Below, in pieces: positions 832-16,847 of a stretch of DNA of 64,000 bases. The notes beneath the pieces were generated by a model. That model saw only the letters and a list, made by a program, of their open reading frames with translations. It searched no databases and was not told the DNA's origin. Source of the stretch: Fibrobacteria bacterium (GTDB lineage Bacteria; Fibrobacterota; Fibrobacteria; UBA11236). A program made the position numbers and the translations under genes. How positions within the stretch are numbered: the first letter of the stretch is position 1; every line of letters begins with the position of its first letter. The DNA is taken from positions 1 to 64,000 of the forward strand of contig JBGTHM010000023.1 of assembly GCA_041746255.1 (NCBI GenBank), written 5' to 3'.

Positions 832-2400
832 CTATTCGATCATGTTCAGTTTTTTCGCCTCCTCAATTTGCGCTTCGGTTCGCACCGGCTTGAATTTTCC
901 AAAGAGCTTTCCGGTAATCTTCTTATAGGTTTTCGTCTGACTGAATATTGTCAACACAATTACGATGATTAGGATTAGGGAAACCGGTCGTGTGAAAATG
1001 GGCAGGAAATCGCCCTGATTAACCATCAGGAAGCGCCGGAGGTTTTCGTCCGCCATGGGGCCCAGGATCACGCCAATGACAAGAGGCGCTACGGGATATT
1101 TCATTTCCGTCAGGAAATAGGAGATGATGCCCACGGGAATCATAAGGTAGAGATTGAAAATTTTGGCGCCTAACGCATAAGAGCCGATTACGCAAAGAAT
1201 AGCCACAATGGGCATGAGCAAAGTTTGAGGCATTTTCAAAACTTTGATTACCTGTTTCGCCAGTAACATACCGATTACCCACATGGCAAGGGCCGATAAC
1301 AGCAAAATGGCCGCCATCTCGGTGATAAAAAGCGGGTTTTCGATTATCAGCATGGGGCCCGGTTGCACGCCATGCAGCAACAACGCGCCCAAAAGCATGG
1401 CCGCCGGGGGACTGCCGGGAATACCGAGGCTGAGCAGAACAATCATGGCCCCGCCGATACAGGCTTTATTGGAGGTTTCGGCGCAGATTATTCCTTCCAT
1501 GGAGCCATGCCCGTATTCCTCGGGATGCTTGCTCATGTTTTTACCCGTTCCATAGGCAACCCAGCCGGCGATATCTTCCCCGATTCCCGGAACTGCGCCT
1601 ATACCGGTTCCTATGATGGCACTGCGTAAAACGGTAATCTTGTTACGGAGGAGATCCTTGAAGCCGGGCAACATTTTCTTCATTTCCACGAAGTTTTTGA
1701 ATTGCGTCTTTTCCTTGAGGACTTGGATGATTTGCGGAATTCCGAACGCGCCAATCAGTACCGGCACGATATCGAGACCCCCATCCAATTCGGGTATTCC
1801 CAGGGTAAAACGGGGATAAGTTTGCAAGGCATCCCGGCCGATTAGCGCCATCCATAGACCGATGAACCCCGCTATCCACCCTTTGATTACGAGGTCCGAA
1901 CTGGTCAGCGTGCCGCTTATAATGATGCCGAACAACGCCAGCAGGAAAAACTCCGCCGAAGTGAATTGCAAGGCCATTTTGGCTATCAAAGGGGTAAGGG
2001 TAATGACGAAAAGCAGACCGATAATCGTACCTACCGCACTGGTGGTGGTCACCAAGCCCAACACTTTGCCCGCCAGCCCTTTTTTGGCCAGGGGGTAACC
2101 ATCCATGGCCAAGGCCGCGGAGGCGGCCGTACCGGGAATATTAAGCAGTACCGCCGAATAGGAGCCTCCATAGACAGCTCCCACATACATGGCCATCAGG
2201 GCTATCATGGCGGTACTTTGATTGACGCCATAAGTGAGCGTTGTCAACAGGGCGACGCCCAGAGTCGCGGTAAGTCCAGGCATGGCGCCGAAAAGAATCC
2301 CCAGGAAAGTAGCTCCTGCGAGAATAGTAACGTTCAGGGGACTGGATAGCAGCTGAATCGTGACGGAAAAAAAATTGGCGAATGCGGTGGTGATTTCCAT
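832..2400 (-). CDS. tctA: Tripartite tricarboxylate transporter, large permease TctA
   Basis: GAMPGL, YGGSYSAVLLNIPGT and LGIPGSPPAA motifs; 522-aa polytopic membrane protein. Confidence 0.93.
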   Translation of the reverse strand: MEITTAFANFFSVTIQLLSSPLNVTILAGATFLGILFGAMPGLTATLGVALLTTLTYGVNQSTAMIALMAMYVGAVYGGSYSAVLLNIPGTAASAALAMDGYPLAKKGLAGKVLGLVTTTSAVGTIIGLLFVITLTPLIAKMALQFTSAEFFLLALFGIIISGTLTSSDLVIKGWIAGFIGLWMALIGRDALQTYPRFTLGIPELDGGLDIVPVLIGAFGIPQIIQVLKEKTQFKNFVEMKKMLPGFKDLLRNKITVLRSAIIGTGIGAVPGIGEDIAGWVAYGTGKNMSKHPEEYGHGSMEGIICAETSNKACIGGAMIVLLSLGIPGSPPAAMLLGALLLHGVQPGPMLIIENPLFITEMAAILLLSALAMWVIGMLLAKQVIKVLKMPQTLLMPIVAILCVIGSYALGAKIFNLYLMIPVGIISYFLTEMKYPVAPLVIGVILGPMADENLRRFLMVNQGDFLPIFTRPVSLILIIVIVLTIFSQTKTYKKITGKLFGKFKPVRTEAQIEEAKKLNMIE

Positions 2401-2417
2401 AGGATTGCCCCGGCTGC

Positions 2418-3164
2418 CTATCCTTTCTTTATGGCGAAGTAAATGTCCGACAAAAGATCCACTACCGCGCCTTCTTTCGGAAGAGGCACCAGCAGCATGA
2501 ACCGGAAGCTGAATGTCAGCAGCAGGGGAACGAGAAGGGAAATCGTGAGGGCGATTTTATAACGGCGGACATTTTCTTTATTGCCGCGGACGAGTACGAA
2601 AGCGTAAATCAGCATACCGGCGATAAACAAACCCACGATGCCATCCACGAAATAGAACATCTCATCGAGTTTTCGGTGCAAATTGAAAAGGAAAAGCAAC
2701 ATGAAAAAAACCGCCCCGATTTGGTAGAAAAGGGAGATTTTTTTGAATACAGGGTAATCATCGAAGTAAAAAATGGCCGTCAGGTAAAAGAGAAACATCG
2801 CCGAGCAGAGATAGAAGTCCGTTGTGGGCAGGTAGATGTATACATAGGAACTGAGCGACAGAATGATTACAAGAAACTTGAGGTTTCGTTCGGTAGTCAA
2901 ATTTAAAGTGCGCTTCAGGGTTTCCAGCGACCCTTTGGCGCCCCCCGCCCTCAAAGCGATAACGAAAAGAATCGCGGATAGGATAATGATTCCGGCGCTG
3001 ACAATTAACGGCATCAATGCCGGGGAGACATACCAGGCATTGGCAACGCCGCCGTAGGTGTCCGTCATAGGCATGCCTAGCGCTTGGGAAAGCACCCAAA
3101 TCCCGAAAACGAAAAGTACGGCGCTCCAAATGACATCGTAACGACGCAATTCTTCTTTATCCAT
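2418..3164 (-). CDS. TctB-like membrane subunit, unusually long
   Basis: Lies between tctA and tctC; hydrophobic; C-terminal F..LLVPLP.G TctB-like motif. Confidence 0.75.
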   Translation of the reverse strand: MDKEELRRYDVIWSAVLFVFGIWVLSQALGMPMTDTYGGVANAWYVSPALMPLIVSAGIIILSAILFVIALRAGGAKGSLETLKRTLNLTTERNLKFLVIILSLSSYVYIYLPTTDFYLCSAMFLFYLTAIFYFDDYPVFKKISLFYQIGAVFFMLLFLFNLHRKLDEMFYFVDGIVGLFIAGMLIYAFVLVRGNKENVRRYKIALTISLLVPLLLTFSFRFMLLVPLPKEGAVVDLLSDIYFAIKKG

Positions 3165-3200
3165 GCTTCCGAACCTTAAATAAAAATGCCCAGATCCCGA

Positions 3201-4211
3201 TTATTCGGGTTTGGGAATACCCAGAGCTTCCGGGCTCACCTTGGTGATTCCCAACTCATGCATGGTCCAGGAAAAGAGGGATTCCAGTCTGTCGAAATTG
3301 TCGGCAGCCTCTTTACCCGTGGCCCCGGAAAGTACGTAATAATTGTCCTTAGCGAATTGTTGGACGGGTTCGGAGGCCATGGCCTGTTTGAATGCATCGT
3401 TCAGTTTGGCTTTGACATCGTCGGGAGTTTCTTTCCCAATGGCGAAACCGATGGCCTGTGAAATCGGCAAATACTCAGCCAATTCGGGAAAGGCGTCGAA
3501 ACCGCTGACAATGGTAGTCGTGTCGATGGTGAAGGCATCGGGCTCCAGCACTGCCAGGGGGCGCAAAAGACCGCCGCGAATGAGCTGCGCCTGTTCGGCT
3601 ACGGATGTGACTACGACGGTGACCTCCCCCGTGAGGGCGGCATTTTGGGCTGGGGCGCTTCCCGGATAGGGTATGAAATTGAATTGGGCATTGGTGCCTT
3701 TTTCAAGTGCCATGAGATTGATGTGGTGGATGGATCCGGATCCGCCTCCGGCGGCTTTGATTCCTTTCGGATTTTTTTTGGCGGCCTCAATCAACTCGGT
3801 CAAAGTGGTATAAGGAGAACCGGGCGTAACGGAAACCACATCCGGAGAACTTCCGACGATAAAGTAATCCCAGACATTCATTCTTTTGTCCCAGCCCCCT
3901 TGGACCCCTGCCGTTACGCAGGATTCGGAAAGCCCCACCAAGGTATAACCGTCATGAGGGGCCTTGTATCCTTCCATCATGCCGAGCGAACCCGCCACGC
4001 CACCGGTTTTGTTGATGACATTGATGTTGTATCCCAAAACCTTCGCCATCTCGGACATGATGACCCGGTTACAAATATCGGTTCCGCCCCCGGCGCCCCA
4101 AACCACCACGGCGGTAATATCCCTTTCCGGATATTCAGACGTTCTTTCCCGGCACCCGGTAATGGTCGAAATGAGTGAAAAAGCCACCAAAAGCGTAATG
4201 GTTCTGATCAC
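3201..4211 (-). CDS. tctC: TTT substrate-binding lipoprotein TctC (Bug family)
   Basis: Lipobox ITGC; YPERDIT.VV.WGAGGGTD, NKTGG..G, DGYTL and IPYPGS motifs. Confidence 0.92.
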   Translation of the reverse strand: MIRTITLLVAFSLISTITGCRERTSEYPERDITAVVVWGAGGGTDICNRVIMSEMAKVLGYNINVINKTGGVAGSLGMMEGYKAPHDGYTLVGLSESCVTAGVQGGWDKRMNVWDYFIVGSSPDVVSVTPGSPYTTLTELIEAAKKNPKGIKAAGGGSGSIHHINLMALEKGTNAQFNFIPYPGSAPAQNAALTGEVTVVVTSVAEQAQLIRGGLLRPLAVLEPDAFTIDTTTIVSGFDAFPELAEYLPISQAIGFAIGKETPDDVKAKLNDAFKQAMASEPVQQFAKDNYYVLSGATGKEAADNFDRLESLFSWTMHELGITKVSPEALGIPKPE

Positions 4212-4502
4212 TTTGATATCTCCAGTTCTCTAAAGGAATTTTCGGTGCAATACAAGTCGCTTACGAAGGAAAAATCCGCCCCGGCGAAATTGAATCCTGC
4301 AAAAATTAGAATAATTGTCTCTACCCTTCTCTCGATTCCTGCTTGCGCATAATAAGTCAGGAATCAATCCGTTCTCCCTTGGAAACATTTCCCTGCCGAT
4401 TTTGGGCCGCCATGCGGAATTCCTCCCTCCCGGTCGAGCCTTATACGCACGAATTTTATAATTTCTGCGGATATTCCGGACATTCTCTCGGAAGGAGACT
4501 TC

Positions 4503-6371
4503 ATGTCGACCCAACTCCCCAAAAAGGGCATTGCCCCTGCATTCATACTGACCACCGCCCTAAGCGCCCTGTTTTTCACAGCGTGTGGCGGCGGTGAATC
4601 CTCTTCCCGCTCCGGCTCCGGCGGGACTCCCTGGGATCCTTCCGTGCCCGTAGTCGTAGATTCCCTGGGAGATTTCGACCCCATCGCCAACCCGGAGGCC
4701 GTGCCCGGCGGCACCTATACCACCTGGGGCGGGCAATTCCCTAAGTCGCTGAACCGATGGCTCGACTACAATTCCTTTTCCAGCCAGGTCATGAGCCTCC
4801 TTTTCGAACCGCTGGTCGAACTCCATTCCACCGAAAACGAACCGGTGGGGGTATTGGCCGACACCTGGGAGATTTCCGAGGATAAAACCACTTTCACCTT
4901 CCATCTCGATCCCAGGGCGAAGTGGAGCGACGGCAAGCCGGTGACCGCGCATGACGTGCAATTCTATTACGACGTGATGATGAATCCGCAAAACCTGACC
5001 TCGCTTTTCCGCGTAGGCCTATCACGCTTCGACCGGCCGGAAGTGATGGACGATGCCACCTTGCGCATTCGCGCCAACGAGGCGCATTGGTCCAACTTCT
5101 GGGAAGCGGCCGGATTGGTGGCTTTTCCCAAGCATATTTGGGAAAAAGTCGATTTCAACACGCAGAACTTCGAATTTCCCGTGGTTTCGGGCCCGTACCG
5201 CATCGGCGACGTTCGCAGAGGGCGTTCCATCACCCTCGATCGCCGCGGCGAATGGTGGGGCCGTTCCAAGCGCTATAATCAGCACAAATTCAACTTCGCC
5301 AATATCCGTTACCGGTTCATGGAGGATCGGGTCAAGGCATTGGAGGCCTTTAAAAAAGGTGATTTCGATGCCTATCCGGTTTATACGGCCTCCATCTGGG
5401 CCGAACAAACCCACTTCGATCAAGTGCAAAAAGGTTATGTCGCCAGGATGCGCATTTTCAACAAAGAGCCCATCGGCTTCCAGGGCTTCGCCCTCAACCT
5501 GAGGCGGCCGATATTCCAGGACCACCGGGTGAGAATGGCGCTGGCGCATTTGCTCAATCGCGAGGTGATGAACGAAAAGCTCATGTATAATCAGTACTTT
5601 TTGCTTAACTCCTATTATCCCGATCTCTATCCCGACAACCTTAATCCCGCCGTAGAACCGGTTGCCTACAATCCGGTGCGGGCGCGAGAACTGCTCAAAG
5701 AGGCCGGCTGGAGCGTCGGCTCCAGCGGCATACTGGCCAAAGACGGACAAAGATTCGAAATCGCCATTCCCACCACCAGCACCGATTTGCGCCACCTCAA
5801 CGTCTTTGTCGAAGACTTGAAGAGCGTGGGAATCACCGCCCGCGTGGACCAGCTCTCGCAATCGGCCGTGCGCAAGCGGCTTGACCACCATGATTTCGAC
5901 ATGTACTGGATGGCCTGGGGTGCGGGCCGCCTGCGCGATCCGGAGCCCAGCTGGCATTCGCGCACTTCCATGGAAATTGCCACCAACAATATTCCCGGTG
6001 TCAACGACAAGGTTATCGACAGCCTGGTTGAGGCCCAGAAAACCGAAATGGATTTGGACCGGCGCAACGCGATACTCAAACAAATCGACACGCGCCTCAA
6101 CGGCATTTTGCCTTATATACTGCTGTGGCAATCCGATAATACCCGCCTGCTTTTCTGGAATAAATTCGGTACACCCCGTTTCGTACTCGACAAATTCAAT
6201 CGCGAAGATATGATCCCGGTATATTGGTGGTTCGACGCGGAAAAAGAGAAAAAATTGCAAGACGCCATGAAAAGCGGACGCCCATTGGATCCGCGCATTG
6301 AAGACGTCCACTATAGTGAAGATGCTTTGGCCGAAGATGAACCTACTCAAGGCGGTCCCACCGGCACGTGA
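4503..6371 (+). CDS. Peptide ABC transporter solute-binding lipoprotein (SBP family 5, YejA-like)
   Basis: Lipobox FTAC; AKWSDGKPVTAHDV, SGPYRI and FQDHRVRMAL motifs. Confidence 0.92.
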   Translation: MSTQLPKKGIAPAFILTTALSALFFTACGGGESSSRSGSGGTPWDPSVPVVVDSLGDFDPIANPEAVPGGTYTTWGGQFPKSLNRWLDYNSFSSQVMSLLFEPLVELHSTENEPVGVLADTWEISEDKTTFTFHLDPRAKWSDGKPVTAHDVQFYYDVMMNPQNLTSLFRVGLSRFDRPEVMDDATLRIRANEAHWSNFWEAAGLVAFPKHIWEKVDFNTQNFEFPVVSGPYRIGDVRRGRSITLDRRGEWWGRSKRYNQHKFNFANIRYRFMEDRVKALEAFKKGDFDAYPVYTASIWAEQTHFDQVQKGYVARMRIFNKEPIGFQGFALNLRRPIFQDHRVRMALAHLLNREVMNEKLMYNQYFLLNSYYPDLYPDNLNPAVEPVAYNPVRARELLKEAGWSVGSSGILAKDGQRFEIAIPTTSTDLRHLNVFVEDLKSVGITARVDQLSQSAVRKRLDHHDFDMYWMAWGAGRLRDPEPSWHSRTSMEIATNNIPGVNDKVIDSLVEAQKTEMDLDRRNAILKQIDTRLNGILPYILLWQSDNTRLLFWNKFGTPRFVLDKFNREDMIPVYWWFDAEKEKKLQDAMKSGRPLDPRIEDVHYSEDALAEDEPTQGGPTGT

Positions 6372-7381
6372 AAGCCTATATTATAAGACGGCTTTTGCTG
6401 ATGATTCCCACCCTGCTGGGAATCTCGCTGCTCGTCTTCACCCTAATCCAATTCGTTCCCGGCGGTCCGGTTGAGGAGCTTATCGCCAATATGCGGCAAG
6501 CCGGCTCCGACCGTGGAGCCGACGCCAGCCGGTCGATAACGGAGCGGGAAATCGAAAACATCAAGGCCTATTACGGCTTCGACAAACCGGCGCATGTGCG
6601 TTATTTCGAATGGCTGGGAAACGTGGCACGACTCGATTTGGGGAAATCCTATACCTATGAACAGCCGGTGTGGGACGTCATCATCAGCAAAATGCCGATA
6701 TCCCTCTTTTTCGGATTCACTTCTTTTTTCCTATCCTACTTGATCTGCATCCCGTTGGGCATGGCCAAGGCGATGCGCCATAACAGCCTGTTCGACACTA
6801 TTTCCTCGGCGATAATCTTCACGGGGTATGTGATACCCGGCTATGCGCTGGGCATTCTCCTTATCGTCTTTTTGGGGGGAGGGAGTTATCTCGATCTCTT
6901 TCCGATATCGGGAATCGTCTCGGACGATTTCGAGGACTTGTCGGCTGCGGGTAAAACCCTCGATTTTCTCCACCATATGGTGTTGCCGCTCTTCTGCTAC
7001 ATGATCAGCGAGTTCGCCTTTTTGACCATGCTGATGAAGAACAGCTTGCTGGAAGAGCTGACCAAGGATTACATGCGCACCGCCCTGGTCAAAGGCTCTT
7101 CCTTCAAAGCCGCCGTCAGGCGCCATGCCCTGCGAAACGCCCTCATCCCCATCGCCACCCGCGCCAGCGAAATCTTCACCATCATGTTCGCCGGCGCCGT
7201 GCTGATTGAACGCGTGTTCGACATCGACGGCATGGGGCTCCTATTCTACAATGCCACCGTGAACCGCGATTATAACGTGGTGATGGGCATCATCCTCCTC
7301 TCCAGCATCATGGCTTTGATAGGCCGCCTCTTTTCCGACCTCCTGTACGTATGGGTCGACCCCCGGATTCGGCTGCAATGA
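6368..7381 (+). CDS. Peptide ABC transporter permease (YejB/OppB-like)
   Basis: YIIRRLLLMIPTLLGI, PGGPVE, YGFDKP, EAA loop (YMRTALVKG...HALRNAL), DPRI end; overlaps the upstream stop. Confidence 0.93.
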   Translation: MKAYIIRRLLLMIPTLLGISLLVFTLIQFVPGGPVEELIANMRQAGSDRGADASRSITEREIENIKAYYGFDKPAHVRYFEWLGNVARLDLGKSYTYEQPVWDVIISKMPISLFFGFTSFFLSYLICIPLGMAKAMRHNSLFDTISSAIIFTGYVIPGYALGILLIVFLGGGSYLDLFPISGIVSDDFEDLSAAGKTLDFLHHMVLPLFCYMISEFAFLTMLMKNSLLEELTKDYMRTALVKGSSFKAAVRRHALRNALIPIATRASEIFTIMFAGAVLIERVFDIDGMGLLFYNATVNRDYNVVMGIILLSSIMALIGRLFSDLLYVWVDPRIRLQ

Positions 7382-8424
7382 GATCGGGCGCTCCCTTCTT
7401 TTCCGAATTGACGCGCGAACGCTGGCGTAAGTTCAAGACCATGCGCCGCGCTTACTATTCTTTTCTGATTTTGGGAGGAGCCTTCATCCTCTCCTTATTC
7501 AGCCAGTTCATCGCCAACGATAAACCGCTTTTTTTGCACTACGAAGGAAAAAGCCACTTTCCCATTCTGAAGTTCTATTCCGACGAAACTTTCGGTGGGA
7601 TTTTTCGCACCGAAGCGGATTATGTCAAACTACGGCACGATCCCGAATTTCGCGCCAATGGCTTCATGTTGCTTCCACCCATTCCCCATTCTCCCGTCAA
7701 ACCCCATCTCGATTTACCCGGAACGCCTCCCCATGCGCCTTCAACTTTGCATTGGCTGGGCACCGACAATATCGGCCGCGACATCTTAGCGCGCCTCATC
7801 TACGGATTTCGCACCTCCATGCTGTTCGCGCTTTTGTTGGCGCTGTGCGCCGCCGTGCTGGGAATCATCATCGGCGGCATGCAAGGCTTTCGAGGCGGCA
7901 AAACCGATATCATCACCCAGCGGCTGGTGGAAATTTGGAGCGCGCTTCCTTTTCTCTACGTGGTTATTCTGCTCGGATCCATCTACGGAAGCAGCTTCTG
8001 GCTGCTTTTATTCGCCATGGCGATATTCGGATGGATAGGCATGTCCTATTACGTGCGCGCCGAATTCCTCAAGTTGAAAACCTTGAATTATGTGCGAGTG
8101 GCGCGCGCACTGGGGTTGGGCCCCGTGCGCATCTTTTCGCAGGAAATCCTCCCCAACGCTTTGACCCCGGTCATCACCTTGCTGCCCTTCATCATCATTT
8201 CCGGCATCTCGGCCCTGACCGCCCTGGATTTTCTCGGCTTCGGCCTGCCGCCGCCAGCGCCCTCGTGGGGCGAAATGCTGAGCCAGGGATTGAATAATCT
8301 GCACGCGCCGTGGATAGCCATTTCCACCGTATCGGCCCTGTTTCTCACTTTGCTGCTGGCGACTTTCGTAGGCGAAGGCATTCGGGAGGCCTTCGATCCC
8401 AAATCAAGCTATCGGGTCGAGTAG
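7378..8424 (+). CDS. Peptide ABC transporter permease (YejE/OppC-like)
   Basis: IANDKPL, HWLGTDNIGRDILARLIYGFR, LDFLGFG, GEGIREAFDP; ATGA coupling favours a start at 7378. Confidence 0.93.
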   Translation: MRSGAPFFSELTRERWRKFKTMRRAYYSFLILGGAFILSLFSQFIANDKPLFLHYEGKSHFPILKFYSDETFGGIFRTEADYVKLRHDPEFRANGFMLLPPIPHSPVKPHLDLPGTPPHAPSTLHWLGTDNIGRDILARLIYGFRTSMLFALLLALCAAVLGIIIGGMQGFRGGKTDIITQRLVEIWSALPFLYVVILLGSIYGSSFWLLLFAMAIFGWIGMSYYVRAEFLKLKTLNYVRVARALGLGPVRIFSQEILPNALTPVITLLPFIIISGISALTALDFLGFGLPPPAPSWGEMLSQGLNNLHAPWIAISTVSALFLTLLLATFVGEGIREAFDPKSSYRVE

Positions 8425-8442
8425 GAAGCTAAGGTAGGCACT

Positions 8443-10446
8443 CTAAGATTTGGATGGAAACGGGGTGTCGTTCAACACCGATGCGACCGCATGCAGGATC
8501 TGCTTCGGAGTGAAGGGTTTCTGGAGGAAATTCGCCCCGTCATCCAGGACGCCGTAATGCACGATGGCGTTATCGGTATAGCCGGAAATATATAGGACTT
8601 TCAAGCGCGAAATGCGGCCTTCCAGGTATTCCGCAAGCTTCCGCCCATTCATTCCGGGCATCACCACATCCGTAATGAGGATATCGATAGGCGCGCGCAG
8701 GCTATCCACGGTTTGCATGGCTTGTGATCCGTTGCGGCAATCAAAAACTTCGTAGCCGGCATTCTCCAATACCCTGCGGGCGAAATTCCGGACGGTATCC
8801 TCGTCTTCCACCAACAAAACGGTTTTCCGAACCGGACCTCCCGCTTGTGAATGCGAATCCTCCTTGTCGGCTGCGTCCGGCGCCGCCCCATCAACCGTGG
8901 AAAGCATCGGAAAGTATATCTTGAAAGTGGTACCGCTTCCTAATTCGCTATAGGCCCAAATGCTCCCGCCGCTTTGCTTGACGGCTCCGTAAACGCTCGA
9001 AAGCCCCAACCCCGTTCCCTTGCCCACGCCCTTCGTAGTGAAAAAAGGTTCGAAAATCCGCGCCTTGACTTCGGGGCTCATCCCCATTCCCGTATCGCTA
9101 ACCGCCAGCATGACATGCGGACCCGGCGAAGAGTCGAAATGGGTGCTGACATAATTTTTATCCAGCACCTTGTTGACCGTTTCAATGGTCAGTTGGCCTC
9201 CGTTGGGCATGGCATCCCGGGCGTTGAGCACCAGGTTGACGATAATCTGTTCCACCTGAGCCGGATCCGCTTTAACCTTGCCCAACCGGGGATCCAGCAT
9301 GGTAACGATCTCGATATGTTCGCCGATTAACCGTTTAAACATATTGCCCAACTCGGCCACCAAAGCATTCAGGTCAATCACCTTGGGCATGAGCATTTGC
9401 TTGCGGCTGAAAGCCAGCAACTGGGACGTCAATCTCGCCGCCCGTTCTCCCGAAGCGCGGATTTCTTGCAGCATTTCCCGAAGGGGGGTGTCGATTGCCA
9501 CTTCTTCCAGCGCCAACTCGGAGTATCCGTTAATGGCTGTCAGTAGGTTGTTGAAGTCATGAGCCACTCCGCCAGCCAGCTTGCCTATGGCTTCCATCTT
9601 TTGCGCATGCACCAATTCGGCCTCCAAACGTTTGCGGCCGGAGATGTCCCGTATGATGACGGACTTTCCGATTTCGGCACCGTGCTCATCCGACATGTCT
9701 CCTACTGTCATCTCGCCGGGAAAGGAGGAACCATCGCTTTTCAGGAAATACACCTCCTTGCCGCCTTCTTGCGATATTCCTTGTGCAAGGATTCGCTCCA
9801 GCTCCCCCCGCTCGGATTCCGGAAGCAAATCGCGAAAAAGCATTCCTACCGCTTCTTTCTCGGGAATGCCGAAAAGGGCTTCCGCTCCTTTGTTCCAGGT
9901 GACTACCGTGGACACCTTGTTGAGGGATAGAATGGCATCGCTGGCTTGGCTGAGAATGCTCGTCAGATAATGGTCGGAGAGAAGCAGCTTACGATAATGG
10001 TTCCGATCTTCATCCGGTCGGGTGGAAAGCCGGGTATTCATGCGATCAAGAGAGGTGCGTAATCGACTCCTACGGGAAAACAACCGACGGCAATCCTCCA
10101 GAAGCCGAAGATGGGATTCCAAATCGCCTGGTGGTGCAATCCAATAAGTGCCTACCATGGAAATCCAGGACAAGTCCAACTTAAGCGCCTCGGCCGCCTT
10201 GCCTTCGGCCAGAAAAATAATGGGACAATCATGAAGCAGTTTGTGCGCCTGACGCGCAAGTTTCACGGTATTGCCGTTTTCCTCTCCGATGAATACGGCA
10301 ATGGGTCCGTCTTTGCCGAGGCTGGAAGGCAATGTCGCCTGCAGATCACCGGGAAGACAGGTTATGGGCTGGAAACCGGCACCCCTATAGACATCTTCAT
10401 CCTTCAATCCGCAACGGGTCACCCAAATAAAATCGTTCGCACTCAA
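8443..10446 (-). CDS. Soluble hybrid sensor kinase (degenerate N-terminal domain, PAS, HisKA, HATPase, REC)
   Basis: PAS (WNKGAEALFG...RDIS), H-box AHDFNNLL, NLVLNARDAM, DTGMG, FEPFFTTK, GTGLGL; C-terminal receiver (VEDE, TDVVMP, KPF). Confidence 0.95.
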   Translation of the reverse strand: MSANDFIWVTRCGLKDEDVYRGAGFQPITCLPGDLQATLPSSLGKDGPIAVFIGEENGNTVKLARQAHKLLHDCPIIFLAEGKAAEALKLDLSWISMVGTYWIAPPGDLESHLRLLEDCRRLFSRRSRLRTSLDRMNTRLSTRPDEDRNHYRKLLLSDHYLTSILSQASDAILSLNKVSTVVTWNKGAEALFGIPEKEAVGMLFRDLLPESERGELERILAQGISQEGGKEVYFLKSDGSSFPGEMTVGDMSDEHGAEIGKSVIIRDISGRKRLEAELVHAQKMEAIGKLAGGVAHDFNNLLTAINGYSELALEEVAIDTPLREMLQEIRASGERAARLTSQLLAFSRKQMLMPKVIDLNALVAELGNMFKRLIGEHIEIVTMLDPRLGKVKADPAQVEQIIVNLVLNARDAMPNGGQLTIETVNKVLDKNYVSTHFDSSPGPHVMLAVSDTGMGMSPEVKARIFEPFFTTKGVGKGTGLGLSSVYGAVKQSGGSIWAYSELGSGTTFKIYFPMLSTVDGAAPDAADKEDSHSQAGGPVRKTVLLVEDEDTVRNFARRVLENAGYEVFDCRNGSQAMQTVDSLRAPIDILITDVVMPGMNGRKLAEYLEGRISRLKVLYISGYTDNAIVHYGVLDDGANFLQKPFTPKQILHAVASVLNDTPFPSKS

Positions 10447-10455
10447 AAGCTTTTC

Positions 10456-11601
10456 CTATAGGATGGGCAAGCCCAACAAGTTCCTGCCCAGCCAAACCTT
10501 GAGCATTTGGGTGGTGGGCGCCATCACGTGGCTGGCCCGCGCATCGCGAAGCAGACGGGCCAGTCGCGAATTCGCAGCATAGGCCCGCCCTCCACATAGG
10601 GTCATGGCTTCATTGGCTACATCCACCACCATTTCCGCCACATCGGCCTTGGCCCCAAAAAGCATGGAAATGGCTTTGGGATCTCCCCTGTCGCCCATGC
10701 GCGCAGCCTCATGCACAAGTTGGCGCGTCCGCTCCACTTTGATCCATAGCTCCGCCACCTGGGATTGCAATAGGGTCATATCCGCCAAGGCCTCGCCGGT
10801 ATGTGAATGACGCCGCTCCCGCAAAGTCTGCAAGGATATGTCCAGACACGATTGGGCAATCCCCAAATAGGTTCCGGACATGGCCATGATAAAATAGGGA
10901 GCGACAATCTCGAAGACGTACCAGATTTGGTCGCCTTCCTCGCCCAAGAGGTTCTGCACCGGGACCTTTGCCTCATGGAGTCGCAGGTCGCGGGAGGCAT
11001 TTCCGTGCATGCCCAATCCCTGCCAAGGTTCGCCCCAATTCATTCCGGAGGTACCGGCCTCCACGACCAGGCAGATGAATTCCCCGATTTCGTTGGTCTT
11101 ATCCGCCATTTTGCCGGAAAGCACATACGAATCGGCAAAACCGCCGCTGGTTACGAAGGATTTAGTCCCCTCCATACTGAAAAAATCCTTTTCCCTCTCG
11201 AGAATCGCTTCGGGCATATAGAAATTCGCGCCGGACCCGCTCTCCGACAAGCCCAGGCTGGTGACATGCCTTCCCTCCGCGATGGGCTTGAGGAAGTATT
11301 CCTCGTGGTGTGGAGTAGCCTTGGCGACTATCACTGCCGTCCCCACGCAATGCATTCCGTAACACATGCTAGTCGAGGAACATACCCTGCCCAACGCTTC
11401 GGTCACCAGGCTCAGAGCGAGCAAGCCCTGCTCAAGGCCACCCAACCTGCGTGGAACATGCAACCCCAGTAAACCGGATTCACCTAAAGCTTGTAATTGT
11501 TCCTTCGGCCATAGCCTTTCCGTGTCCACCCTTTCGGCAAGCGACGCGAATTTTTCCCGGGCCAAGTCCTCGGCTAGAACTTGCAATTGATGGGGGGTCA
11601 T
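10456..11601 (-). CDS. Acyl-CoA dehydrogenase-fold flavoprotein (atypical)
   Basis: LSESGSGA, GTKSFVTSG, LGMHGN, AK..VAE, GGRAY and LLRDA motifs. Confidence 0.9.
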   Translation of the reverse strand: MTPHQLQVLAEDLAREKFASLAERVDTERLWPKEQLQALGESGLLGLHVPRRLGGLEQGLLALSLVTEALGRVCSSTSMCYGMHCVGTAVIVAKATPHHEEYFLKPIAEGRHVTSLGLSESGSGANFYMPEAILEREKDFFSMEGTKSFVTSGGFADSYVLSGKMADKTNEIGEFICLVVEAGTSGMNWGEPWQGLGMHGNASRDLRLHEAKVPVQNLLGEEGDQIWYVFEIVAPYFIMAMSGTYLGIAQSCLDISLQTLRERRHSHTGEALADMTLLQSQVAELWIKVERTRQLVHEAARMGDRGDPKAISMLFGAKADVAEMVVDVANEAMTLCGGRAYAANSRLARLLRDARASHVMAPTTQMLKVWLGRNLLGLPIL

Positions 11602-11785
11602 CGATAAGTTCTCCGTCTTTTTCGAATACTAAAAGAAGATACATTGGCTCGAGAGGGCGGGAAAAGGTAATAAATTCGGACGCGGCTGGTCGGTAAACGC
11701 AGCACGAAGCCACGAATGCGGAAGTCCCTGTCGCTGAGGCTTTTCCCGGGGACGCGATGGGCACGGGATTTGTACTTTATCCGAT

Positions 11786-12805
11786 GTGAATACCCCCATT
11801 TCCAAGGGTCAGCCCATTCTTAAAGTCGAGGACCTTTCCATCGGCTTCGAAGGACCGGACGGACTTATTCCCATTACCGAAGGCGTCTCCTTCGAAATCT
11901 ACCCCGGCGAAATGTTCGGCCTGGTCGGCGAATCGGGATGTGGGAAATCGGTCACCTGCCTCAGTCTCCTTAAGCTTTTGCCCTCCCCGGGGGGACGCGT
12001 CATCTCCGGCCGCATTTGCTACAAGGGTCGCGAAATCCTTTCGCTCTCCCCGCAAGAACTCCGAACCTTACGCGGCTGCGAGATGAGCATGATTTTCCAG
12101 GAACCCGGCGCCGCCTTGAACCCGCTGATGACGGTCGAGCGCCAGATGTTCGAGTGTTTTCAATTCCACCGCTATCCCGGCAACCCGCAGCAACGCTCGC
12201 GCGACCTGTTGGCGCGCACGGGCATAGCCGATCCCGACCGGGTGCTTAAAGCCTATCCCCACCAATTATCGGGAGGCATGTTGCAACGCGTTATGATTGG
12301 CATGGCGCTGCTGCTGAACCCCGGTTTTCTCATCGCCGACGAGCCCACCACCGCGCTGGATGTGACCGTGCAAGCGCAAATCATGGAGCTTATCCGCGAA
12401 TTGCAAGACGAATTCCAAACCGCCATCTTGCTTATCACCCACAATCTCAATTTGATAGCCCAATACGCGGACCGACTCGCCGTCATGTACGCCGGTCGCA
12501 TCGTGGAACAGGCTCCAGTTCCCTCCTTTCTGGAAAACCCCCGTCACCCTTATTCGCAGGGCCTTCTGGGAGCCCTGCCCCGGCTGGAGGCGCATCGCAA
12601 CCAGCCGCGCCCCATCCCCGGCCATGTGCCGCGGCCCCGCGATTTCGCCGCCGGTTGCCGTTTCGCGGACAGGTGTCCGGAAGTGATGGACAAATGCTCA
12701 CGCAAACCCGAATTCTATCCCATCGGCGAAAAGCATAGCGCCGCTTGCTTCCTCTACGAAACCCATTCCGCCGCCGGAAAAACTTCGGGAACTTTACAGC
12801 CATGA
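11786..12805 (+). CDS. oppD: Oligopeptide ABC transporter ATP-binding protein (OppD/DppD)
   Basis: Walker A GESGCGKS, YPHQLSGGM, ADEPTTALD, HPYSQ, Cys-rich tail. Confidence 0.92.
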   Translation: MNTPISKGQPILKVEDLSIGFEGPDGLIPITEGVSFEIYPGEMFGLVGESGCGKSVTCLSLLKLLPSPGGRVISGRICYKGREILSLSPQELRTLRGCEMSMIFQEPGAALNPLMTVERQMFECFQFHRYPGNPQQRSRDLLARTGIADPDRVLKAYPHQLSGGMLQRVMIGMALLLNPGFLIADEPTTALDVTVQAQIMELIRELQDEFQTAILLITHNLNLIAQYADRLAVMYAGRIVEQAPVPSFLENPRHPYSQGLLGALPRLEAHRNQPRPIPGHVPRPRDFAAGCRFADRCPEVMDKCSRKPEFYPIGEKHSAACFLYETHSAAGKTSGTLQP

Positions 12806-13803
12806 TATCTGCAACGGAAACCCGAAAATCTGAGGCGGTAGGCGAAGTCATCTTGGAAGCCCGGGATTTGAAAACCCATTTCCCGGTGACGGGCGGCGTA
12901 TTCCATAAAGTCATGGCGCATATAAAAGCCGTGAACGGCGTCGATATCACCCTGCATTCCGGCGAAATCGTTTCCGTAGTGGGTGAATCCGGTTGCGGTA
13001 AAAGTACTTTGGGTTACTCGCTGCTGGGCTTGGTCCCGCCGACTTCGGGTACGCTTAAGCTCATGGGCCGCGAAATAGACATCCATAAGCCAAGCTCATG
13101 GAAAACCTATCGTCGCGACTTTCAAATCATTTTTCAGGATCCCTACACCTCGCTCAATCCCCGCCATACCATTTTCGAAATCCTGGCAGAACCCATGTTC
13201 GTCCATCGCATTTGCACCCGCGCGGAGGCCCGCGAAAAAGTGGCGTCTCTGCTGGAGCGGGTGGGTTTACAGCCTGAGGACATGCATAAATTTCCCCATG
13301 CCTTTTCGGGCGGTCAGCGCCAACGCCTGGGAATCGCCCGCGCCATCAGTCTCAAGCCCAAAGTTATCATATGCGACGAGGTGGTGGCCTCCCTCGACGT
13401 GTCGGTGCAGGCGCAAATCATTCAATTATTGCTCGACCTCAAGCAAGACCTTGGGCTTTCGCTGCTTTTCATCTCGCATGATCTTTCGCTGGTGCGCAAT
13501 ATCAGCGATAGCGTGCATGTCATGTACCTGGGCCGCATCATGGAATCCGCCACCGCCGACGATTTGTTCCATGCGCCCCGCCACCCCTATACCCGGGCTT
13601 TACTCGACTCCATCCCGACCCTGGATCGCAAAAAGCGCCCCAAGCTCCTTCTGGGCGAAGTCCCCTCTCCCGTCAATCTCCCCCAAGGCTGCCCATTCCA
13701 AAGCCGTTGCCCGCATGTGCAGGACCGCTGTCGGGACATCGTACCCGAATTGGAAATCGTGGGAAATTCCCGCGCAGCCTGTTATTTTCCCTTGCAGGGG
13801 TAA
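12802..13803 (+). CDS. oppF: Oligopeptide ABC transporter ATP-binding protein (OppF/DppF)
   Basis: GESGCGKST, FSGGQRQR, CDE, HPYTRAL, GCPFQSRC; ATGA overlap with oppD. Confidence 0.92.
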   Translation: MISATETRKSEAVGEVILEARDLKTHFPVTGGVFHKVMAHIKAVNGVDITLHSGEIVSVVGESGCGKSTLGYSLLGLVPPTSGTLKLMGREIDIHKPSSWKTYRRDFQIIFQDPYTSLNPRHTIFEILAEPMFVHRICTRAEAREKVASLLERVGLQPEDMHKFPHAFSGGQRQRLGIARAISLKPKVIICDEVVASLDVSVQAQIIQLLLDLKQDLGLSLLFISHDLSLVRNISDSVHVMYLGRIMESATADDLFHAPRHPYTRALLDSIPTLDRKKRPKLLLGEVPSPVNLPQGCPFQSRCPHVQDRCRDIVPELEIVGNSRAACYFPLQG

Positions 13804-13866
13804 CACCGCCTCATTTCGGTCCGCCGTGCCGTAGATTTCCGGCGGAGAAAGTCGAATCACCCGATC

Positions 13867-14190
13867 ATGATATTCGGAAACGCGCTGCCTTACATTCTGC
13901 TCATGACCTTATTGGGCATTTTGTTCGGTATGTGGAAGGGCCGCGCTTTCGTGGGCGCTTTGCTCGGGCTGTTTCTGGGGCCGGTGGGGTTGCTTATCCT
14001 GGCCTTCATTCCACCCGCCAAGCGCGTCGCGCCGGGCACAGGCTCGACCGGGGCTGACCCCTTCGGAGGAGCAGGCTTCGGAGCCGCAGCCCGTTGCCCT
14101 AAATGCAATAATCCCGTAAATCGTGGAGATAAAGTCTGCCCCAATTGCGGCAATCTATTAATCGATGTCCGTTATCGCGTGGAAGAGTAA
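13867..14190 (+). CDS. Small membrane protein with C-terminal zinc ribbon
   Basis: Two hydrophobic helices (GLFLGPVGL) followed by CPKC..CPNCG. Confidence 0.8.
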   Translation: MIFGNALPYILLMTLLGILFGMWKGRAFVGALLGLFLGPVGLLILAFIPPAKRVAPGTGSTGADPFGGAGFGAAARCPKCNNPVNRGDKVCPNCGNLLIDVRYRVEE

Positions 14191-14201
14191 AATCAGCGGA
14201 A

Positions 14202-14224
14202 GGCGGTCGGATAAACCGACCGCC
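14202..14224. terminator. Probable bidirectional terminator hairpin between convergent genes
   Basis: GGCGGTCGG-ATAAA-CCGACCGCC, perfect 9-bp stem. Confidence 0.6.
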
Positions 14225-14238
14225 ATTTGCCTATACGA

Positions 14239-15072
14239 TTAAGCTGCTGAGGGAGTTTGCAGCCATTGACGCACGGTTTCGCGGATGAATACGCCGTCCT
14301 TCAAAGTCACGCCGTCGGGATCTTCCACCGACTCTTCGCACTCGTCTTCGAAAACCACCCAGCCCTTGTAGCGGGTATCGACCATGTCGCGAATAAGGGT
14401 TTCGAAATCGATGATTCCCTCGCCCATTTGCGCCCATTCCCCTTTGTCGTCCATATCCTTGAAGTGGAAATGGTTGACCAGATCGCGGTATTCGCGAACC
14501 AAGGCCACCGGGTCCATGTCGCCTTTGGCGATATGGCCGACGTCAGGAGTCCAACCCATTACCTTCGCGTCGAGCTGGGGCAACAGTTTGTCGTAATCCT
14601 CGCGGGTGCGCCAAACCGATCCATCCGGTGAATTGGGATGGTAGGAGCAAATCAAACCCTTGTCAGCGGCCCGACGGGCAACGGTATTGATGTTCTTCAT
14701 CAGGTTACGTTGGCGTTCGTCCAGATTGCTGCGGTCCTTGCCCGGCATTTGCACCAGCATGAACAAAACATCTTTACCCGCGTCGCAAGCCAATTGGATC
14801 AGCCGATCCGCCTCTTGACGCTCGGCTTCGGTTTCTTCGGGATTGAGCCAGTCGCAAACCAAGGTCAAGCTGGAGAGCTCGAGTTTTTCCTTGGCCATGC
14901 ATTCGCGCAATAAGCCGGCATCCCAGTATTTTCCCAATTGCAGATTGATGGGTTCGAGAGCCTCGAAACCGGACTGGGCCGCAATCTTGGCCATATGATC
15001 GATTTTTCCCATATACTTGTCGCCGCATTGGATCCAGGCATAGGTTTGGCAGCCGAAGCGTATGTTATTCAT
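14239..15072 (-). CDS. Sugar phosphate isomerase/epimerase TIM barrel (IolE/xylose isomerase-like)
   Basis: YHPN, PDVGH, HFHFKD, GEGIIDF and VFEDE metal-binding pattern. Confidence 0.88.
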   Translation of the reverse strand: MNNIRFGCQTYAWIQCGDKYMGKIDHMAKIAAQSGFEALEPINLQLGKYWDAGLLRECMAKEKLELSSLTLVCDWLNPEETEAERQEADRLIQLACDAGKDVLFMLVQMPGKDRSNLDERQRNLMKNINTVARRAADKGLICSYHPNSPDGSVWRTREDYDKLLPQLDAKVMGWTPDVGHIAKGDMDPVALVREYRDLVNHFHFKDMDDKGEWAQMGEGIIDFETLIRDMVDTRYKGWVVFEDECEESVEDPDGVTLKDGVFIRETVRQWLQTPSAA

Positions 15073-15085
15073 CAGGACTCCTTTT

Positions 15086-15883
15086 TCAGTGGCTTAGCAG
15101 CCATTCAGTGGTTTCACGGTTAAAACGCTCAAGATCTTCCCAGTGGTGGGTGTGGCCCCAACCCTCGAAGGTCAGCAGCTTCGAATCCTTGATGCCCTTG
15201 TTCAATTCCAAAGCATTGGCATAGGGAACGAAGAAATCCGCGGTACCCGCGGTGATCAAGGTGGGCTGGGTGATTTTACCCAGGTCTTTGGAACTGTCGT
15301 GGGAAATACAGGCCGCGGCTTGCCCGGTAAAACCCTGCTGGGTTTGCATGTATTCGTAGCCCAGGGCATCTTTGCGCCCCTGTTGGAAAGCTTCGCGATT
15401 GCGGTTGTAATGGTCGGGAGTGAAAATGATGAGATGCAGCAATTGCAGAAATTCGTCGAAGGCCATGGAGGCGCGCGCCTTGACGAGAACGTCGAAGACA
15501 TCGCCGGCATGGTTGTCCAACTTGGCCCAGGTGGCCGCCAGAATTTGGCTTTTAACCTTGGTCGGGTGGCGCAAAGCCAGTTGTTGCGCAATGACCCCTC
15601 CCATGGAAAGCCCGACTACGCGAGCTTGCTTGAGTCCGACTTCATCCATCAAACCGGCTATGTCGTCGGCCATCATGGCGGAAGTGTAAGGTCCTTTGGG
15701 GGCATCGGAGCGTCCTACCCCGCGGTTATCGAGCAGATAACAGGTGAAATGTTTTTCCCAGGCTTTGGCATGGTCTTCCCAAACCGGCCCGTCGGCGGAA
15801 AGCCCCATGATGAGGATGAGCGGCTCGCCCTGGCCGCGGGTTTGATAATGCAGACGAATTCCGGAAACTTCGGCAAAAGGCAT
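15086..15883 (-). CDS. Alpha/beta hydrolase
   Basis: DNRGVGRS, nucleophile elbow GLSMGG, GTADFF Asp, GH near the C-terminus. Confidence 0.92.
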   Translation of the reverse strand: MPFAEVSGIRLHYQTRGQGEPLILIMGLSADGPVWEDHAKAWEKHFTCYLLDNRGVGRSDAPKGPYTSAMMADDIAGLMDEVGLKQARVVGLSMGGVIAQQLALRHPTKVKSQILAATWAKLDNHAGDVFDVLVKARASMAFDEFLQLLHLIIFTPDHYNRNREAFQQGRKDALGYEYMQTQQGFTGQAAACISHDSSKDLGKITQPTLITAGTADFFVPYANALELNKGIKDSKLLTFEGWGHTHHWEDLERFNRETTEWLLSH

Positions 15884-16037
15884 GGTAGACTCCTCCGGTT
15901 TGATGGCCGTTACAATGCGAGACTCTGAAAAAATACCCTGGGAAGCATAAGGATATTGGGACTATTTCGGCATGTTTAGGAGGGTGGTGCGCATGGGTTT
16001 CGGAATGTGGGAGACAGGGTCCATCTCCAGGTGTTTT

Positions 16038-16847
16038 TCAAGGGGCCAGCACTGCGGCATGGTGGCGCATTCCACCCGATCCCGAGGGTCCTTGCGCTCC
16101 CTGAAAGTGACGGCGGCGAAATTCGCTGGGAGTAACGCCCATACGTTTTATGAATTGTTTGGAAAAGTAGCTCTGATCGCAAAAACCCGTGGATTCCGCA
16201 ATCCACGAAACCGATTTTCGCGTTTGTATCAGGGATTTACAGGCCTCGTTCACGCGAACTTTGAGAATGAATTGCATGGGCGTTTCTTGGAAAATGCTTT
16301 TGAAGCGCCGCTCGAATTGACTCATGGAAAGCGCGGCCATATGCGCCAACTGGTCCACGTCAATGCTCTTGGCATAATTTTTATGGATGTAGGTGATGAC
16401 CTCGGAGAACTCCATGTATGCGGGGGCCGGCACGGGGGCGCGATCCAGATGCTGGGTAATACCGGCCACGCCGACCACGGTCTTATCCCGGCCGTAAATC
16501 GGCACTTTGTTGGTGGAATACCAGCGGATGGTACCGTCTTCGCAGGCTATCGGCTCTATTCGGTGCACGATACGCTCGCCGGTATTCATGACCTCAAGGT
16601 CGTCCTTGCGAAAGCGTTCGGCGATGTATTTGGGAAAAAAGTCGAAATCGGTGCGACCGACGATTTCATGGGGATGGCTGCAACCGCAAATGAGCGCCAC
16701 CGATTGGTTCCCCATGACAAACCGGCCTTGTTGGTCTTTGACGAAAAAAGACATATTTGGAAGATTTTCAAAGAGCAAGTCGAGACCGCCAAGTGGGTCT
16801 AGGCCATTGAGAAAGTCCCGCTGGAAATTTTCGAAATTCTCCACCAT
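16038..16847 (-). CDS. AraC-family regulator with N-terminal PAS domain
   Basis: PAS_4 (FFVKDQQGRF...GRTDFDFF) plus AraC HTH (GFCDQSYFSKQF...TPSEFR); start trimmed to the ATG at 16847. Confidence 0.92.
   Translation of the reverse strand: MVENFENFQRDFLNGLDPLGGLDLLFENLPNMSFFVKDQQGRFVMGNQSVALICGCSHPHEIVGRTDFDFFPKYIAERFRKDDLEVMNTGERIVHRIEPIACEDGTIRWYSTNKVPIYGRDKTVVGVAGITQHLDRAPVPAPAYMEFSEVITYIHKNYAKSIDVDQLAHMAALSMSQFERRFKSIFQETPMQFILKVRVNEACKSLIQTRKSVSWIAESTGFCDQSYFSKQFIKRMGVTPSEFRRRHFQGAQGPSGSGGMRHHAAVLAP

Follow-up and report, generated by a model that had tools for sequence, protein, structure and literature searches.

The window examined here, a 64,000-nucleotide stretch of the genome of a Fibrobacteria bacterium (positions 1 to 64,000 of contig JBGTHM010000023.1), carries on its reverse strand a gene for a protein with the fold of the acyl-CoA dehydrogenases (ACAD; CoA, coenzyme A), directly followed by a gene for a soluble hybrid histidine kinase. 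We find that the pairing of this ACAD-fold family with a signalling partner is not a product of chance in loci drawn from about ten phyla. The partner keeps its N-terminal module while its output domains are exchanged, which argues that the ACAD-fold protein stands on the input side, and we consider it highly probable that the two genes work together in signalling in this arrangement. The pair had been singled out as a candidate signalling module in an original prediction that a model had made from the letters of the stretch.

The ACAD-fold gene (10456..11601, reverse strand) encodes 381 residues, carries the signature RDARAxHVM[AS]PTT and is without a catalytic carboxylate. The kinase gene (8443..10446, reverse strand) encodes 667 residues and begins at a TTG codon. 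Between the ACAD stop codon (TAG, 10458-10456) and the kinase start codon (TTG, 10446-10444) lies a spacer of 9 nt (10447..10455, reverse strand), read directly off the sequence and identical in length to the gap stated in the original prediction. An AGGA at 10457-10454 overlaps the ACAD stop codon and stands 7 nt ahead of the kinase TTG, a layout typical of translationally coupled genes. Together with the 9-nt gap, this suggests that translation of the ACAD and the kinase may be coupled.

To survey the gene neighbourhood of ACAD homologues, one genome per GTDB species was scanned. Out of about 185,600 species, 445 held a relative of the ACAD-fold protein, which makes the cassette rare; the 80 best-matching loci were retrieved. 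All 75 loci that extend at least 450 bp past the ACAD stop codon have an open reading frame (ORF) directly after the ACAD on the same strand, and in 71 of the 75 the start of this ORF, assigned heuristically as for all partner genes, falls between -40 and +22 nt from the ACAD stop. Signalling domains (PAS, kinase, GGDEF or GAF) were found in 70/75 downstream proteins. By Pfam, the partners comprise 57 histidine kinases (most of them hybrid, five with GAF and two of the HWE type), 6 partners with GGDEF and 3 with GGDEF-EAL; another 4 show PAS or GAF alone, and 5 match no family. Of the four PAS/GAF-only partners, two are truncated where their contig ends, and one probably contains a frameshift. 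Among the five partners without a family, L039 and L049 are likewise clipped, L024 is split between frames, and for L040 and L074 the wrong frame had been chosen, kinase similarity being seen in both by tblastn. The original prediction had named such a survey as a test by which it could be refuted, and the linkage held. Following all-versus-all clustering of the 3071 ORFs of the 80 loci, conservation was limited to two genes, the ACAD in 80 loci and the sensor in 74. The remaining large clusters arise from antisense frames of these genes, and no third conserved gene was found in the 80 neighbourhoods.

The specificity of the pairing was assessed with a profile built on the partner's N-terminal domain, which gave one strong match per genome, located beside the ACAD, in 4/4 genomes, with two additional weak matches in one genome. 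When 151 genomes were sampled evenly from one bacterial family, around the genome that holds the Massilia locus L003 (G031), the N-terminal domain and the ACAD turned up in the same 7. In each of these the two genes lie side by side on one strand (7/7), and the other 144 genomes of the sample gave no match for either gene. One of the seven (G262) is an unpublished genome, without which the count is 6/150. Related genomes are not independent, and these counts are given without a statistical test. An even sample at the level of the order contained the pair in 1/151 genomes, the centre genome only. A collection of plasmids yielded a single match, on a 1.18-Mb replicon, and the cassette is therefore not typically plasmid-borne.

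The first Pfam domain of the partners begins at approximately residue 150-210 and is usually PAS, preceded by an unannotated domain. The profile of this unannotated domain was compared with 1.84 billion representative proteins, giving 400 matches at E<=1e-10 and 761 at E<=0.001, and the domain is N-terminal in all 150 best matches listed. For 75 carriers of at least 400 aa, taken from the matches listed and of metagenomic origin, the accompanying domains are PAS_4 (71), HATPase_c (63), REC (34), GAF (12), GGDEF (4) and EAL (2). A quick maximum-likelihood tree of 67 ACADs, from which 14 loci without an assigned output were left out, requires the output class to change at least 5 times, with 4 changes forced by well-supported branches. 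In this tree Nitrospirota kinases group with gammaproteobacterial GGDEF partners (97% support), and the topology cuts across taxonomy, Pontibacter being placed with Thiodiazotropha. It had been proposed that homologues of the ACAD are linked to this type of kinase. This proposal is supported, by 75/75 loci and by the 7 of 151 genomes that hold both genes. Since GGDEF and EAL also occur as outputs, what the ACAD is linked to is the pseudo-receiver-PAS module at the N-terminus and not hybrid kinases as such.

Among 31 relatives of the genome from which the window is taken (G000), the ACAD was found only in that genome itself and in the same-genus G001. The G001 copy is 49% identical, is followed by a PAS kinase and has a DeaD helicase gene on one side and a CitMHS transporter gene on the other. 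The pair in the window is flanked on both sides by genes of an Opp/Yej-type ABC transporter on the forward strand (binding protein 4503-6371, permeases 6368-8424, ATPases 11786-13803). Lying on the reverse strand, it separates the permease genes of this operon from its ATPase genes. The corresponding slot is closed in G003, contains an M23 peptidase gene in G001 and is occupied by VWA-domain genes in G002, G004 and G007; to judge from these arrangements, it is a recurrent insertion site. Because the G001 pair lies in a different context and the content of the ABC slot varies among relatives, the pair is an insertion that has moved as a unit, in our reading a mobile two-gene sensor cassette.

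Two irregularities of the partner genes were encountered in the survey. In 21 of the 75 loci, a start codon in the partner frame lies exactly 40 nt before the ACAD stop; these cases probably correspond to an in-frame start within the conserved 3' end of the ACAD gene, and would otherwise represent a real 40-nt gene overlap. Some partners look broken, with an in-frame TAA in the N-terminal domain in G234 (C64:32868-33353) and kinase similarity divided between frames in L024 (8092-10592) and L001 (1702-3598). Such genes may be decaying copies or assembly errors.

The domain architecture of the kinase in the window, all on the reverse strand, starts with the predicted pseudo-receiver (residues ~1-106, 10129..10446), a (beta-alpha)5 domain unmatched in Pfam and lacking a conserved phospho-acceptor Asp. 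This is followed by a long helical linker with a conserved R..LRTTL.RAN motif (residues ~107-162, 9961..10128), a PAS domain (residues 163-273, 9628..9960), a HisKA plus HATPase_c core with its His in AHDFNN (residues 288-514, 8905..9585) and a canonical C-terminal receiver with its Asp in ITDVVMP (residues 543-654, 8485..8820). Pfam places PAS at 163-273, HisKA at 288-350, HATPase_c at 394-514 and REC at 543-654, each above its cut-off. The protein thus has the HisKA His, the HATPase_c domain and the C-terminal receiver Asp of a hybrid histidine kinase. The highest Kyte-Doolittle hydropathy over 19 residues is 0.97; there is therefore no transmembrane segment and the kinase is soluble, as had been claimed. 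The best match in the PDB is the kinase core of CckA (5idj). The CckA family model (NF046020) scored 412.7 bits against a cut-off of 1000, with the alignment covering the C-terminal part of the model only.

No Pfam family was found for kinase residues 1-160 at E<=10 beyond sub-threshold noise, and the same holds for 8/8 N-terminal domains scanned. AlphaFold2 models were obtained from an alignment of 51 partners (residues 3-285; pLDDT 88) and from 69 N-terminal parts alone (pLDDT 85, pTM 0.75). In both, residues ~3-105 form five beta-alpha units, from which a helix of ~60 residues leads into the PAS domain. A Foldseek comparison of the N-terminal model with the PDB returned mostly receiver domains (RssB, WspR/PA3702, NtrX, PhoB, FleQ and LvrB), all of them weak matches with E values of 8e-4 to 1.5e-2 and identities of 10-22%. 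The 283-residue model matched PAS domains only, with FixL the best at 26% identity. In the ESM Atlas, the N-terminal domain was closest to two unnamed clusters (0.89 and 0.88) and to a Response_reg cluster (0.86), all below the 0.9 level taken as a lead. No conserved acidic column occurs at the phospho-acceptor positions in 69-70 aligned N-terminal domains. The columns that are conserved are P48, A64-R65, F78, L87-R88, A95-P96, G99 and W102, in addition to the R..LRTTL.RAN of the linker. Residues 1-106 therefore have, in the models, the CheY-like (beta-alpha)5 fold of a receiver, and lack both the conserved Asp with its acidic pocket and a match to PF00072. We conclude that the N-terminal domain is predicted to be a pseudo-receiver with a receiver-like fold, in agreement with the earlier description of a receiver-like domain without the acidic pocket, followed by a helical linker and PAS.

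The 10456-11601 protein contains the three ACAD Pfam domains PF02771, PF02770 and PF00441, all above cut-off. A search of the PDB gave 99 ACAD matches, of which the best is Ch1DH (PDB 7P98, E 1.5e-44). In HMMER alignments to PDB 8i4p and 7w0j, the catalytic Glu of enzymes of the medium-chain and short-chain type (MCAD/SCAD) is aligned with A361, HVMAPTT standing in place of IYEGT. The second ACAD of the same genome aligns likewise, IIEGTT to VMAPTT. The accessible text on Ch1DH (PMC9293079) gives N241 of 7P98 as the position of the base of isovaleryl-CoA and long-chain acyl-CoA dehydrogenases (IVD/LCAD). It describes an enzyme in which the classical Glu positions are filled by N241 and T363, with catalysis by a third kind of base, D91, and in which the reaction chamber is lined by L84, I87, A88, D91, T157, N241, Q248, Y362 and T363. 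These residues were transferred by a hand count along the HMMER sequence alignment to 7P98, as opposed to coordinates, the alignment numbering agreeing with that of PMC9293079. The corresponding residues of the window ACAD are M79, G82, M83, V86, T151, Y236, T244, M360 and A361, none of which is a carboxylate. Y236 thus takes the IVD/LCAD-type position and V86 the position of the third base.

The same positions were inspected in a family set of 200 sequences, consisting of 120 listed by the protein search and 80 translated from the fetched loci. Position 361 is Ser in 106, Ala in 92, Thr in 1 and Gly in 1, position 236 is Tyr in 159, Phe in 40 and Ile in 1, and position 86 is Val in 200/200; neither Glu nor Asp was found at any of the three in the 200 sequences. 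M83, T151 and M360 do not vary. Where ACADs canonically have a G-S-D motif, the window protein has G-A-N, and the family has G-x-H in 175/200 and G-x-N in 20/200. The replacement of IYEGT by HVMAPTT and the lack of a Glu at the IVD/LCAD position, both noted by eye in the original prediction, are thus borne out by the alignments. Because every known proton-abstracting base has been lost, the alignments support the proposal, also made there, that the flavoprotein is not a normal dehydrogenase, that is, not an alpha,beta-dehydrogenating acyl-CoA dehydrogenase.

Two further residues were considered and rejected. E231 as a displaced base is the sole conserved acid of its region, yet it is Q, D or H in 15/200 sequences (Q in 9, H in 1), and it aligns with Q236 of 7P98, a residue absent from the chamber list in the accessible text of PMC9293079. 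Removal of a thioester hydrogen-bond donor by P362 was also rejected, as the donor described for 7P98 in that text is the NH of T363, which is aligned with A361 and not with P362.

Residues of the flavin site of other ACADs are conserved in the family (T151, S119-E120, F149 and R263). In addition, H84 and H112 are invariant in the 200 sequences, H358 is present in 199/200, and C74, C80 and C85 are nearly invariant. M83, H84 and C85 map to the broken helix that carries D91 in 7P98, and are therefore near the active site. Together with M83 and M360, this family-specific group of His and Cys could act as metal ligands or take part in a reaction.

The protein search returned 2835 proteins at E<=0.001, which will include other ACAD families, and the best 120 listed are 55-67% identical to the window ACAD and share its signature at the C-terminus. 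The names these relatives bear in databases, such as 'isovaleryl-CoA dehydrogenase' or 'AidB-like', are automatic. The nearest NCBIfam family is Rv1679/FadE16 (NF049984), with residues 20-380 aligned to positions 14-370 of a 371-position model; the score of 256 bits lies below the cut-off of 600, and the protein is not a member. The papers listed for Rv1679 are omics studies. ACAD-fold flavin monooxygenases of the DszC, SfnB and HsaA type gave 67-99 bits against cut-offs of 430-850, and no partner flavin reductase is conserved in the 80 neighbourhoods.

The metabolic setting was examined in the genome of the window, an assembly of 130 contigs estimated by markers to be 100% complete. Electron transfer flavoprotein (ETF; PF01012) gave 0 matches in this genome, the same search being positive in 10/14 control genomes. 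The genome has just two ACAD genes, including that of the window. It also has five matches to heme-copper oxidase (COX1). On the strength of these five oxidase matches, the lack of an ETF match and the two ACAD genes, the organism is an aerobe nearly without ACAD-dependent metabolism, with no ETF found to take the electrons of an ACAD. The missing ETF match and the single further ACAD gene also speak against a normal dehydrogenase in the window. In the surroundings of the pair, no beta-oxidation or ETF genes were found among 13 ORFs scanned with Pfam (832-16802), consistent with what had been stated for the neighbourhood. The second ACAD of the genome encodes a 667-aa protein resembling ACAD9 and the very-long-chain enzyme VLCAD, with the Glu of its IIEGTT intact (G000:C94:6769-8772; L084 1770-3773). 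A TubZ-like gene of the tubulin/FtsZ family (L084 91-1389) adjoins it.

We tentatively propose, as a reading that we place just short of an even chance, that the HVM[AS]PTT ACAD-fold family constitutes a new class of stand-alone cytoplasmic sensors comparable to H-NOX and NosP. At a base-less flavin pocket, its members would sense redox state, O2 or a small apolar ligand, and by docking on the pseudo-receiver they would control kinases and cyclic di-GMP (c-di-GMP) enzymes across about ten phyla. The two genes would form one sensory cassette, inherited and transferred as a unit, with the ACAD-fold protein as its input subunit. The putative flavin pocket would be apolar and Met-rich, being formed by M/L79, M83, V86, T151, Y/F236, M360 and S/A361, and without a base it could serve to report redox state, O2 or the ligand. 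The state of the pocket would be passed by direct contact to the pseudo-receiver, helical linker and PAS module of the partner, with the pseudo-receiver as the docking site; for a co-sensor mechanism by direct docking we see the chances as evenly balanced. A change in linker geometry would then carry to the PAS domain and switch whichever output follows, and comparable linker-borne signalling occurs in receiver-stalk proteins such as WspR. In the window, this output would be the CckA-like HisKA/HATPase core with its C-terminal receiver, feeding a phosphorelay encoded elsewhere. What the analysis shows is the gene pairing, a constant input module with exchangeable outputs, the loss of the catalytic bases, the lack of an ETF match in this genome and the receiver-like fold. 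FAD binding, contact between the two proteins, the kind of signal and the way in which information flows are what we infer for the pair. A complex prediction with the ACAD, kinase residues 3-285 and flavin adenine dinucleotide (FAD) scored 0.01 (mark 0.32) and counts neither way.

Several points weigh against this sensor proposal. Binding of FAD by the ACAD-fold protein is presumed from conserved motifs only, and the conserved H84, H112, H358, C74, C80 and C85 could signify real chemistry. An oxidase or monooxygenase reaction can proceed without a carboxylate base, and the loss of that base does not show the protein to be inactive. A constant PAS domain beside a protein of an enzyme family fits a ligand made by that enzyme equally well. 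The 80 loci surveyed are the closest of the 445. A search for fused ACAD-sensor proteins in the range of 668-2000 aa gave none, which is weak evidence. The main rival is an enzyme-receptor pair in the manner of RpfF-RpfR or RsbQ-RsbP, a minority possibility in our estimation, in which an active flavoenzyme (such as an oxidase or oxygenase, or a dehydrogenase of an unusual kind that works through His or Cys) makes or destroys the PAS ligand, and the pseudo-receiver docks the enzyme and may regulate it. The layout of RpfR is alike, with an N-terminal enzyme-interaction domain (1-95), PAS (118-224) and output, and RpfF belongs to an acyl-thioester family, according to the accessible text of PMC6361424. 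PAS is present in nearly all partners, the invariant His, Cys and Met close to the helix of the pocket (with M83, H84 and C85 flanking the D91 position of 7P98) could be catalytic, and the taxa named for the 80 loci look mostly aerobic. G000, for its part, has five heme-copper oxidase matches, and an aerobic setting would suit O2-dependent flavin chemistry. However, no known base is present among the residues mapped into the reaction chamber, and the loci have no conserved neighbour that would give the substrate, a CoA ligase or a flavin reductase. PAS was, moreover, not found in the Nitrosospira-type and Pontibacter partners (Pfam, E<=1e-5 and 1e-6), and no ligand can be named.

It is improbable, in our view, that the ACAD is a metabolic or detoxifying flavoenzyme merely co-transcribed with a dedicated regulator, where the kinase or cyclase would sense through its own PAS domain and the ACAD would be cargo or target. 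Regulators do often adjoin the enzymes they control, and the 9-nt operon gap is compatible with this. The output nevertheless varies between kinase, GGDEF, GGDEF-EAL and GAF-kinase as the N-terminal module remains constant, a pattern that marks an association with the input, and c-di-GMP enzymes do not act as gene-specific regulators. Further to this, no strong match to the N-terminal domain lies away from the ACAD where both were sought, and no further pathway genes are conserved. Chance adjacency from insertion, without functional meaning, might be suggested by the position of the pair on the opposite strand inside an unrelated ABC operon, in a slot that takes varied cargo. The pairing is, however, kept in 75/75 loci from about ten phyla and in 7/7 versus 0/144 genomes of the even sample, so that this explanation is refuted for practical purposes and its probability is negligible.

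The closest parallels to the proposed sensor among known systems differ in protein fold. H-NOX with HnoK and NosP with NahK are small cytoplasmic cofactor proteins beside soluble kinases or c-di-GMP enzymes, with variable outputs and control by contact. H-NOX and NosP are heme proteins that sense nitric oxide, whereas the protein described here has an ACAD fold with presumed FAD and a partner with a dedicated pseudo-receiver. In Bacillus subtilis, RsbQ is a protein of an enzyme family that is co-transcribed with the PAS signalling protein RsbP and needed for its activation. The comparison with this pair, made in the original prediction, is a fair analogy; RsbQ is an alpha/beta hydrolase, RsbP a PP2C phosphatase, and the system is not known to have a pseudo-receiver or a flavin. 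To our knowledge, none of H-NOX, NosP, RsbQ and RpfF has an ACAD fold and none has a pseudo-receiver as a constant domain of its partner.

In layout, and in layout only, RpfF-RpfR of Burkholderia and Cronobacter appears to be a closer analogue than RsbQ-RsbP. As described in the accessible text of PMC6361424, this pair of a synthase of the signal BDSF and its receptor likewise places an enzyme of an acyl-thioester family beside a cytoplasmic receptor with the order enzyme-interaction domain, PAS, output. The N-terminal domain of RpfR holds or regulates RpfF, and its PAS domain binds the molecule that RpfF makes. RpfF has a crotonase fold in contrast to the ACAD fold here, the interaction domain is profilin-like as opposed to receiver-like, rpfF and rpfR are convergent whereas the pair in the window is co-directional with a 9-nt gap, and the RpfR output is fixed as GGDEF-EAL whereas it is variable here. 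In the case of Ch1DH (PMC9293079, accessible text), the likeness to the window ACAD lies in the three-domain ACAD fold, the flavin-site residues and the absence of Glu from both classical positions. The two differ in the replacement base, D91 in Ch1DH versus V86 here (200/200), and in the alteration of the G-S-D motif here and the lack of an ETF match in G000.

A full-text literature search, with thin coverage of subscription journals, found no published description of an ACAD-sensor pair, in keeping with the remark in the original prediction that no characterised example was known. The accessible text of a 2025 review of flavin redox switches (PMC12540587) contains no occurrence of 'acyl-CoA dehydrogenase', and 'acyl-CoA', 'flavoprotein' and 'dehydrogenase' are all absent from that of a 2023 survey of PAS domains (PMC10468136). 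Accessory sensors beside kinases and c-di-GMP enzymes are a known kind of system, of which an ACAD-fold member would be new. The signal of most cytoplasmic PAS kinases and c-di-GMP enzymes is not known, and the pair offers a defined candidate for such an input, in the form of a conserved partner with a probable flavin across 445 species-level genomes. It also brings with it a putative new family of N-terminal docking domains comprising about 400 sequence clusters. If the flavoprotein is indeed the sensor, a fold of fatty acid oxidation would join the short list of accessory sensors and, if true, would provide an example of a catalytically disabled enzyme recruited into signalling. The combination of a constant input with a swappable output would make the cassette a possible building block for engineered switches that respond to redox state or to a ligand.

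Beyond the ABC transporter genes, a xylose-isomerase-like TIM-barrel gene and an alpha/beta hydrolase gene (14239-15883, reverse strand) lie downstream of the ATPases, with no visible link to the pair. Upstream of the transporter, a TctC-TctB-TctA operon for a tripartite tricarboxylate transporter occupies 832-4211 on the reverse strand.

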